64,000 nt of DNA from Eledone cirrhosa (lineage: Eukaryota). The position numbers and the translations under genes are program-made. The DNA is taken from assembly GCA_964016885.1 (NCBI GenBank), contig OZ024742.1:51336001-51400000 (forward strand). The letters are read 5' to 3'. Numbering within the stretch: position 1 is the first letter of the stretch; each line of letters starts with the position of its first letter. Below are positions 17,900 to 64,000 of this stretch, one piece after another. The notes beneath the pieces are model-generated. The model did not search any database and had not been told where the DNA came from. It saw only the letters and a program-made list of their open reading frames with translations.

Positions 17900-18402
17900 A
17901 ATGTAAGTATGTATACGTACATACATATATACAGACGTACAGTAGCACGTATATATATATATATATACATACATACAGGCACACATATATATATGTACGT
18001 ATCAGTTTAGCGAATATTTATTATAAAATTCGCTTGGTTCGTTTGTAAACAAACGGACAGCCTGCTTTTGCCGTACGGTGTTAAGGCAACCACGTGACAT
18101 TTTTGTTCAACACTAACACAGGAACGATGTACCAGTTTCAAGCCTGTTAGCTATCGTCAGCACCGTATACCCTTCTGCCAGATGGTTGAACGTTCGAAAG
18201 TATATACTTTACTTATGAAAATTAATGGCTGAGCAGCCTAATTTGCATATCGAGTGAGTTCAGTCGGCTAGGCGCACCGAAAACGATAAGTTGGAATAGA
18301 ATGAAACGAAATTTCATTTCTCACTCTTAGTACGGCACTTACTTAAATGTAAGTATGTATGTATACGTACACACATATATGTATACAGACGTACAGTAGC
18401 AC

Positions 18403-18445
<43 letters not shown>

Positions 18446-18809
18446 CAGGCACACATATATATATGTACGTATCAGTTTAGCGAATATTTATTATTACATT
18501 CGCTTTGTTCGTTTGTAAACAAACGGACAGCCTGATTATGCCGTACGGTGTTAAGGCAACCACGTAACCTTTTTGTTCAACACTGACACAGGATCAAACG
18601 AACAAAGCGAATGTTATAATAAATATTCGCTAAACTGATACGTACATATATATATGTGTGCCTGTATGTATATATATATATATATATACATATATATACG
18701 TGCTACTGTACGTCTGTATACATATATGTATGTACGTATACATACATACTTACATTTAAGTAAGTGCCGTACTAAGAGTGAGAAATGAAATTTCGTTTCA
18801 TTCTATTCC

Positions 18810-18812
<3 letters not shown>
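17900..18812 (-). mobile_element. HHR element with partial direct repeat and inverted segment, flanked by (TA)n
   Basis: 17900-18122 is repeated at 18347-18592; 18596-18812 is an inverted copy; HHR at 18124-18166. Confidence 0.8.
18124..18166 (-). ncRNA. Minimal type I hammerhead ribozyme
   Basis: acggtg CTGACGA tagctaacaggctt GAAA ctgg TA catcgt; canonical core, 6-bp stem I. Confidence 0.8.
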
Positions 18813-60089: not shown

Positions 60090-62330
60090 TAAGAAACAAA
60101 AAGAACTTCAGGCCTCCGTTAAATAGAGACAAACACCTGGAGGATTACATAACCTATGTCCGACGGTCAGCACAGTCAAATACTGACGAAACACAAGCAC
60201 AACATCCCTACAGACCAACTGCAAGCACTAAACAAACTACAACAAAACTTTTCAATAATCATAAAAGAAGTGGACAAAGGTGGAGCAATCATCATCTTTG
60301 ACAAAAACCACTACAAGGATATGGTTCTAGAACAGCTGAATAACGAGGACCTTTACAGAAAAATCAGCAAAAACGAAGAAAGAAAATCGATTATTAAAGT
60401 AGGCAAACTGACGACAAAGTACCATAGCAACCTCATACTAACGGAAATCAATTACTTAACCAACTTCGAAATGAAAACCAGCAATTTCTATGTTTTACCG
60501 AAGGTTCACAAATACAGAGAAATTCAAAACAGCATAAAATGCAAAAATAGATCGTATGTTGAAGTACCAAAACCGACAGATTTAAAATTACGCCCAATTG
60601 TTGCCGGTCCAGCCTCAAGCACACAACGTCTAAGCAACCCATTAGACATCATACTTAAACGCTTATGAAAAAAAGTGTCAAGCTTCATCGGAGATGATAT
60701 GGAATTCCTGAACTATATCCCCCAGAAAGTACACCAAGAAACAATCTTATTCAGATTTGACGTAACACGCTTATATACTAACATCCCACACGGCCTAGGA
60801 GTTGAAGCTATTGACTTCTGGATTACAAAATATACAGACTACATTTCAGAGAGATTCCCACAAACATTTATTTTGGAAGGACTCAAACTAGTACTGGAGA
60901 ACAACCACTTCCTTTTTGATAAGGAACTATATTTACAAATAAAAGGAACGGCCATGGGTACCAAAGTGGCCCCAACATATGCAACACTTGTAGGCCACCT
61001 GGAGGAAAAATTACATTCCAAACTGCAGGAAACATTCAGTCATAACTTCGCCACCTACATTAATCACAACTAGAAACGCTACCTAGACGACTGCTTCATT
61101 TTCTGGAATAGAAGCCAAGAAGACCTTCAAAGATTCCATTCCATCATAAACAATCTTTACGAAGAAATAAAATTCACCTTGGCATGTAATAAAAAGGAAC
61201 TACCGTTTCTGGATATCCTTGTCATTAAAGAAGGGGAAAATATCAAAACAGACTTATTTTACAAACCAACAGACACACACCAATACTTGAATTTCCGTTC
61301 AGCACACCCATCACATATCAAAAGGAACATTCCTTTTAACAAGGCAAGACGCATCTGCATCATAGTAACAAAACCCACACTACAGGACAAAAAGATTAAA
61401 TGAATTACAAGAGTTTCTTAAGAGACAAGAAAAATCCGGTGAACCTCATCAACACAGCCATCTCCAAAGCCCAGAACATCCCAGTGACAACACTGAGAAA
61501 AACAAAGCAACAAAATAGAATGGAAAACACAGTTTATCCCTTTTGTCATCACTCACAATCCACGGAACTTCAACATTGTAAAAGCCGCCAAACAATATCT
61601 CCCCATTTTTCAGCAGTCCCCTAGAATAAATGCACTCATAAAAGACGCACAAATTAGATATAGTAGACGCCAAGAACCCATCCCAAAGTAACTGCTTACC
61701 AAAGCAAAATGTATGTCTAATAATGAAGCAATGCAAGTTAAGAAATGCAGGGGCCCTCGAATACGGAACTTGCGAACTCATTGAAGAGGGTGGACAAATC
61801 TCCTTCAAAAACAACCAGATTGTCACGGTTAATGCAAACATGAATTGCAAAACAAAAAACTTGATTTACTGTGCAGCCTGACCACAATGTAAGGAATACT
61901 ACAGGGGTGAAACCCGAATTGGTCTACATGACAGAGTTCGAGTACATAAACAACAAATTAGAGACCCCTCTGTCAGAAACACCACATGCAATGAACACTT
62001 CGCAACGTGCGAAAAGGGAAATTTCGCAATTTCCCCCTTCTTTAAGATAAGGACGGACAACGAAAACTTCCGAAAATATACAGAAGAATTCTTTATTAGA
62101 AAATACAAATCACTACTGAACACAAAAAAGTGATATTCTATCTTCAAGCAACGGGATTCTTCCCCTCTCTTTTCTTTAAAAAATTCTCATATTGAAAAAG
62201 AAAAATAGCTGATGACACCCGTACTTTCAAACATTCGATCGCTGAAGAGAAGAAAAACCCTCAGAGGTACAATAACATTTCATTAATTTCCACTTCCCCA
62301 CACCAATGTATATATGAACTTAAACACTTG
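60090..62330 (+). pseudogene. Penelope-like element, near-complete RT + GIY-YIG with stops and frameshifts, flanked by (TA)n
   Basis: IKEVDKGG, FYVLPKVHK, LRPIVAG, FDVTRLYTNIPH, GTAMGTKVAPTYA, RYLDD, LPFLDI, YKPTDTHQYL, NLIYC..Y.GET...RV..H. Confidence 0.9.
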
Positions 62331-62980: not shown

Positions 62981-63000
62981 AATATATATATATATATATA

Positions 63001-64000
63001 TATGAATATAGACATAGAATATTCGAAAATATTCTGTATGTTTATAATAAACATTTTGAAGACCTAATCGCTATAGAATAGAATACGTCACGTATTACAA
63101 TTAGATTCTCGATAAAAGCAAGGGAAGTAATCTACGCGTTTCATTCTCGTTAGAAATCATCAGGACTACATATCCAGTGCTTTTATCGAGAATGACACAG
63201 CTAGAGACTTATAGAATACTTAGCTGTGTACAGGAACTGGTTTGAAAGAGCGGTTGCCGGTCCGGCAGAAATTAGAAATTGGAATAAATGCTCTGAAATA
63301 GCGATATATATGTGAATATAGACATAGAATATTCGAAAATATTCTGTATGTTTATAATAAACATTTTGAAGACCTAATCGCTATAGAATAGAATACGTCA
63401 CGTATTACAATTAGATTCTCGATAAAAGCAAGGGAAGTAATCTACGCGTTTCATTCTCGTTAGAAATCATCAGGACTACATATCCAGTGCTTTTATCGAG
63501 AATGACACAGCTAGAGACTTATAGAATACTTAGCTGTGTACAGGAACTGGTTTGAAAGAGCGGTTGCCGGTCCGGCAGAAATTAGAAATTGGAATAAATG
63601 CTCTGAAATAGCGATATATATGTGAATATAGACATAGAATATTCGAAAATATTCTGTATGTTTATAATAAACATTTTGAAGACCTAATCGCTATAGAATA
63701 GAATACGTCACGTATTACAATTAGATTCTCGATAAAAGCAAGGGAAGTAATCTACGCGTTTCATTCTCGTTAGAAATCATCAGGACTACATATCCAGTGC
63801 TTTTATCGAGAATGACACAGCTAGAGACTTATAGAATACTTAGCTGTGTACAGGAACTGGTTTGAAAGAGCGGTTGCCGGTCCGGCAGAAATTAGAAATT
63901 GGAATAAATGCTCTGAAATAGCGATATATATGTGAATATAGACATAGAATATTCGAAAATATTCTGTATGTTTATAATAAACATTTTGAAGACCTAATCG
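63001..64000 (-). repeat. 310-bp HHR tandem array (more than 3 copies, runs off the window end)
   Basis: Unit restarts at 63001, 63311, 63621 and 63931; HHRs at 63127-63169, 63437-63479 and 63747-63789. Confidence 0.93.

Follow-up and report, generated by a model that had tools for sequence, protein, structure and literature searches.

We consider it likely that the tandem array at 63004..64000 of the window, the 64,000-nt stretch of Eledone cirrhosa DNA analysed here, is a copy of a very young, non-coding family of 310-bp retrozyme units, and that the two inverted arms of such copies were written by a borrowed PLE RT/endonuclease, priming from both cut ends on one RNA, probably a circle. Unit starts lie at 63004, 63314, 63624 and 63934 and, some 54 kb away, at 8974 and 9284, with a period of 310 bp and a GC content of about 0.34. 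The preliminary description had reported the same unit at both places, with a sole visible change in hammerhead loop II that leaves the core intact, and this is borne out: the units of the 63004 array are mutually identical, while those at 8974 and 9284 differ at 1 of 310 positions (C/T at unit position 145, the final base of loop II; haplotype 145T), with the core unaffected.

The 63004 array, whose RNA sense is the minus strand, has its A-type outer end against a (TA)n target tract (62982..63003) and continues outside the window for a total of 4.14 units, to the window-equivalent position 64285, ending in a fold-back of about 10 nt followed by a TA/TG tract. The second insertion (8974..9507, minus strand) consists of 1.75 units with an A-type entry that includes GT, and closes with a 23-nt inverted piece (9506..9528, plus strand; unit positions 216 to 194), which is a fold-back or a very short second arm; a long TA-rich tract surrounds it (8293..8973, resuming at 9529-10293). 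As had been described, both arrays begin inside TA tracts and the flanking sequence beyond the tracts is not alike. The further claim of a shared entry point stands for the TA tract but not for the exact position, the entries being 2 nt apart: the GT before unit position 1 is kept at 8974 and absent at 63004. Haplotype, entry and far end thus all differ between the two loci. Both copies are one-armed, the minority type in the family, and are flanked by repeats or long TA tracts. A separate 123-bp tandem repeat (two copies, 97% identical) lies at 11190-11435. No ORF of at least 120 codons was found over 63004-64000, the short frames within the unit are unconvincing as ORF remnants, and no ORF runs on from any arm end examined; the unit lacks the RT plus GIY-YIG ORF that an autonomous PLE would carry.

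Exact matches in the 3.0-Gb genome number 14,942 for a 25-mer taken from the hammerhead and 15,039 for the internal junction, with no match for the controls of either pattern, including the reversed 25-mer; these counts come from exact and pattern searches, a whole-unit DNA search being unsuited because common words are skipped. The window arrays are therefore neither a lone pair nor a mis-join, and many more than two copies exist. From the mean of 8.6 units per insertion (91 loci) and the overlap of the A and B end lists, we estimate about 2,000 insertions in the genome. Sporadic substitutions amount to 85 in 203,905 bases (0.04%), an upper bound that includes sequencing error. These figures, together with the differences between the two window loci, uphold the earlier suggestion of recent, independent insertions. 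Because the unit is present in 20 sequencing runs with 18 different organism labels, horizontal transfer was considered, and it was found to be unsupported, the unit being mostly in trace-like form where examined. Among the seven runs examined, five (X2, X16, X10, X12 and X15) contain the unit as one 280-340-base contig at a depth of 5-34, with the look of trace DNA, X23 is without reads, and X5 alone is deep.

Each unit carries on its minus strand a type I hammerhead motif, made up of a 6-bp helix I, CUGAUGA, a 4-bp helix II, GAAA, a minimal palindromic helix III and a GUA triplet; helix II has a U-U base and a 4-nt loop that position 145 closes. The motif of the first unit occupies 63127..63169, with the cut predicted between 63133 and 63132, and further motifs lie at 63437-63479 and 63747-63789 and, in the second insertion, at 9097-9139 and 9407-9449. 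All of them are minus-strand motifs, their core C falling at 63163, 63473, 63783, 9133 and 9443. Since the unit has no Rfam match at the gathering score, the call rests on the pattern scan, and we treat the hammerhead as a predicted self-cutting RNA motif for which core conservation and covariation speak. Weak helices III such as this one have been reported to be active in dimers (PMC4209133, in the part available). None of the fixed variants of the 310-bp family falls in the catalytic core, and the predicted fold of the circular monomer reaches -67.8 kcal/mol (z -4.5 against 100 shuffles).

Two sister families allow the fold to be compared. A 319-bp family (1,124 candidates) is 93-97% identical to the 310-bp family and aligns along the unit, and a third, older family (2,520 candidates) is about 91% identical. 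Both use sites homologous to the two entry sites, A and B, discussed below, the exceptions being B+B at L163, L196 and L198 and one unclear end at L174. The 319-bp type is exemplified by L065:3037-3301 (further loci L145-L175), with a U3-A8 core, a longer helix III and the same A/B sites, and the third by L042:3683-3993 (further loci L176-L205), where the internal TA run is broken. Of the 52 predicted pairs, 17 have changed on both sides between the 310-bp and 319-bp families, where slid controls gave 0-2; the count covers 4 + 5 sequences of two families, amounts to about one event per pair and uses a structure predicted from the same alignment. The U3-A8 core of the 319-bp hammerhead is a swap known as natural covariation (PMC3088659, in part). 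A conserved hairpin 12 nt from site A, recognised by comparison with the sister family (63016..63035, minus strand), has a UUCG loop in the 310-bp family and a GCAA loop with two compensatory pairs in the 319-bp family, and site B falls, in the predicted fold, among unpaired bases that a conserved helix encloses. The RNA fold thus appears to be conserved across the sister families.

Other hammerhead sequences were seen in passing. A 466-bp hammerhead tandem array (L129:1467-5941) is weakly similar, at the profile level, to the 310-bp and 319-bp families (E about 0.003-0.009), and a short hammerhead-like fragment recalling the helix II region of the unit (L031:3155-3215) ends in a TA tract about 870 bp past an array. 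In the window, a different hammerhead family forms an inverted pair with unequal ends between TA tracts (46397-47960; motifs at 46506, minus, and 47774, plus), with a related motif at position 62 (plus), and another hammerhead repeat (17950-18810; motif at 18160, minus) is present as tandem and inverted pieces between TA tracts.

The insertions begin at either of two entry sites, which are separated by about 35 nt. Site A adjoins the TA run of the unit, all A ends lying at unit positions 301-12, and at site B the homology is limited to 2 nt. Among the first 16 loci of the hammerhead match list, 11 are inverted array pairs with arms starting outward in the cDNA sense, and among the remaining five are three loci with a single arm, a short fold-back and an array that runs into a gap. 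All 11 pairs, which were picked by the hammerhead pattern alone, combine one A end (301-7) with one B end (270-277); 10 of the 13 B-type ends in these 16 loci are at 274-275. Pattern matches to the junctions themselves number 1,099 for B and 1,168 for strict A genome-wide. On contig C1 (1-239 Mb), where 100 A and 93 B ends were entered after six B rows outside the range and one internal variant had been dropped, the convergent pairs within 16 kb were A+B in 55 of 55 cases, with neither A+A nor B+B; six of the 11 pairs above are also among these 55. The same rule holds for 40 loci picked by one end, in which 29 of 29 inverted insertions with both ends readable were A+B. Twenty of these loci, picked as unpaired A, gave 15 with a B-type other end (268-283; one of them an 11-nt arm) and five single arms, and 20 picked as unpaired B gave 14 with an A-type end, three single arms, two extending beyond the stretch and one gap. 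A TA run of at least 8 flanks one or both sides at 82 of 88 loci, most of which were picked by TA-flanked patterns. Clear target duplications were found at L039 (44 bp), L041 (32 bp) and L048 (15 bp), most others being hidden in TA tracts. The stretch of about 35 nt between B (unit positions 275-277) and A (310/1) resembles a PLE-type tail; it is internal in the 63004 array (63278..63313, minus strand) and terminal at one end in two-armed insertions.

The preliminary description had proposed that an internal (UA)n run, by pairing with nicked genomic (TA)n, primes insertion. Pairing can assist at A, given that every A end lies beside the run, but as the determinant of priming it is insufficient, and we hold this model to be quite improbable. 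B is equally common with its 2 nt of homology, and G309 is absent from 55 of 87 A ends, three of these loci having G309>A haplotypes; A ends without G309 indicate that copying often starts past the run, the last base of the primer pairing beyond a mismatch. L048 has a non-TA target, marked by its 15-bp duplication, yet shows the same two ends. In the third sister family the run is broken in 33 of 49 internal junctions and the A ends are at the same base; four contiguous pairs would still be possible there, so this observation weakens the pairing idea without removing it. The preference for TA targets is more readily attributed to the endonuclease, and the position of the starts to the structure of the RNA and to the protein.

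The arms of an insertion share their template. In 63 of 66 insertions with at least one unit in each arm, both arms have the same haplotype, where shuffled arms gave a mean of 7.9 matches and a maximum of 16 (2,000 shuffles); of the 26 haplotypes, 16 were observed once. At loci such as L077, L083 and L096, a variant seen in no other insertion occupies every unit of the two arms, which points to repeated copying of a monomer-sized template. Arms reach 27 units. Single units could in principle have been inserted and then grown locally by unequal crossover, as in the satellite-type amplification discussed in bioRxiv 10.64898/2026.07.22.740005 (in part), or the arrays could be assembly artefacts; a few sporadic variants do recur within one long arm at L053. 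We regard either as highly improbable given multi-unit arms on both sides with common fixed variants, exact end sites and 0.04% divergence. Contigs of the independent run X5 also contain plus-to-minus arm joints, at other positions, which shows that the inversions are not confined to the present assembly.

A different origin of the second arm would be snap-back, in which a B-primed cDNA folds onto itself and is self-copied, the second strand exits at the TA run (A) by microhomology, and arm lengths are later altered by deletion or unequal exchange. This accounts for the shared haplotypes and for A at the TA run, for the mirrored variants of L061 and L106, where a variant is confined to the outermost pass of both arms, and for the short fold-backs at both window loci. 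It also accounts for L083, where at least 40 bp of the left flank are copied inverted beyond the A end (1 of 88 loci), an arrangement that fits outward DNA-templated synthesis; self-priming has been proposed for PLE inversions (PMC3846280, in part). However, snap-back predicts a B arm at least as long as the A arm, whereas in 79 insertions, about half of them picked as A+B pairs, the A arm is the longer in 34, the B arm in 41 and the two are level in four (Wilcoxon p 0.15, no significant asymmetry), in arrays merely 0.04% diverged. The near-symmetric lengths argue against a simple snap-back from B, and both sites are genuine RT starts for an anole PLE in vitro (PMC11167929, in part), so that we find this origin unlikely. 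The 66 central junctions comprise 35 with microhomology, nine blunt and 22 with filler.

Somewhat more plausible, though still well behind priming on a circle, is twin priming on linear multimeric transcripts, with the hammerhead incidental. Long arrays could yield such transcripts for arms of up to 27 units, the variants of L061 and L106 are index-matched between the arms, and hammerhead mutants left insertion by the anole PLE unimpaired in vitro (PMC11167929, in part). Together with L116, where the haplotype switches inside one arm, L061 and L106 show patterns that a pure monomer circle could not produce, and the inverted flank copy of L083 likewise counts against such a circle. Against linear templates, the presence of a private variant in every unit on both sides of an insertion calls for a monomer-level template at some step, and the catalytic core is free of fixed variants and covaries in the sister family.

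We searched for the partner that might supply the enzyme. Searching with protein sequence brought up a PLE that must be very young, since 145 of 150 scored copies are equal to the query over 160 aa; it has an intact 1,211-aa ORF, a 4,146-bp tandem unit and insertions in TA tracts. One copy (L266:1520-5155 on contig C28; further loci L236-L281) has a long Asn-rich insert in the ORF, and three 3' end positions are seen. Of 15 inverted pairs fetched, 13 were readable at both ends, and in all 13 a short end faces a long one, the difference being a tail of 44 or 59 nt. From its motifs we take this element to be of the Neptune type. The RT part of the ORF was below the cutoff against RVT_1 (E 6e-5); Pfam assigned no family to the whole ORF, and its C-terminal part had no match. 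A related ORF in the window did match GIY-YIG. Decayed PLE copies form an inverted pair in the window at 48520-51323, with a GIY-YIG match at 50826-51320, and another decayed PLE (60153-62330) terminates at a TA tract that lies 650 bp to the left of the array. The hammerhead scan of the young PLE found none, and an nhmmer search with the two-family profile over 60 PLE loci (two families, 30 each) matched only nested retrozyme copies. A relaxed hammerhead pattern for the driver gave 15 matches, whose matched letters are variants of the motif of the retrozyme itself and whose flanks were covered by a profile scan, and the ends of the second PLE family are unrelated to the retrozyme. Within the two PLE families sampled, no driver with ends like those of the retrozyme emerged. 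The young PLE, which extends the rule of one short and one long end, is a candidate partner, without detectable sequence in common with the retrozymes.

For the preferred reading, double priming on one RNA, we infer that the arrays are transcribed and that the hammerheads cut as dimers, releasing monomers which may circularise. The PLE protein, probably a dimer, would cut both (TA)n strands, and reverse transcription would start from B at one end and from A at the other, pairing of the internal UA run helping at A alone. Each RT would pass several times round its template, giving multi-unit arms, and the two cDNAs would be joined tail to tail through microhomology or a short filler. Failure of the second priming would leave a single arm or a short fold-back, as at both window loci.

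The element class itself is known, and the family fits the metazoan non-LTR retrozymes. As these are described in PMC7229834 and bioRxiv 10.64898/2026.07.22.740005 (each in part), they are, like the 310-bp unit, non-coding tandem repeats of 150-450 bp with a GC content below 50%, and they likewise have one type I hammerhead per unit and no LTR, PBS or PPT. They also occur as dispersed copies with target duplications of more than 4 bp when present, as do the copies here (14,942 matches; L039, L041 and L048), and two axolotl hammerhead motifs in the same available text share the weak palindromic helix III and the U-U helix II base. Cleavage and circles were demonstrated in PMC7229834 (in part), whereas in E. 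cirrhosa both are predictions. In the main text of that paper the words "inverted" and "microsatellite" have no occurrence, and the two-armed layout, the fixed starts and the targeting of microsatellites are not described in the available text of either work. Retrozymes have been tied to PLEs by phylogeny (bioRxiv 10.64898/2026.07.22.740005, in part), and circular templates for more-than-unit reverse transcription have already been proposed (PMC7229834, PMC4209133, both in part).

Among known elements, the PLEs also stand near to the family. They have a 30-40-bp tail at one end, inverted copies and a (TA)n bias, and the origin of tail and inverted copies has been termed undefined (PMC8557442). 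Like the retrozyme, EN+ PLEs form tandem and inverted copies with a one-end tail in (TA)n targets (PMC8557442; PMC3846280 and PMC11167929, in part), and have two internal start sites downstream of the hammerhead (PMC11167929, in part). In the anole element, Poseidon PAc, RT starts at two internal sites that bound the tail, without homology, both DNA strands are cut and extended, and a dimer is predicted; the start sites were alike on both strands in vitro, in contrast to the one site per end of the retrozyme (PMC11167929, in the available part). EN+ PLEs differ further in having an ORF and a pLTR, while the retrozyme is ORF-less and consists entirely of a single repeating unit of pLTR size.

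A second comparison is offered by mammalian L1. In L1 twin priming, two target ends prime on one RNA, leaving an inversion junction with microhomology, and the two cDNAs copy different parts, the first from the poly(A) tail. The retrozyme cDNAs, by contrast, start 35 nt apart and both repeatedly copy the same sequence. In the literature covered (the main texts cited here and the listings of full-text searches, mostly non-subscription) we found no report of one site per end, of templates shared between arms, or of a cephalopod retrozyme.

More tentatively, at a confidence just short of even, we suggest that PLE insertion in general is an asymmetric double priming, in which one dimer and one RNA (here the hammerhead circle) act together, each DNA end is given a different start site and the two RTs travel repeatedly around a shared circle. 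A single step of this kind would account for the tail of PLEs, for their inverted copies and for retrozyme arrays that arise as ready-made multimers, and the 1,211-aa PLE could be used to reconstitute the reaction. In vitro, two start sites were found, but how they are used in any one insertion was left unexplained (PMC11167929, in part), and the family supplies the rule.

The roughly 2,000 near-identical insertions are in this sense a record of the insertion reaction, from which a rule can be read: each end uses a single site, and the two arms are copied from a common template. The part concerning the ends is seen also in an intact PLE. With a 310-nt substrate, mapped starts and a candidate enzyme, the open question of the PLE mechanism becomes testable at the bench. 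For the arrays of this family, the evidence supports an origin by repeated copying of a small RNA rather than by later satellite growth.
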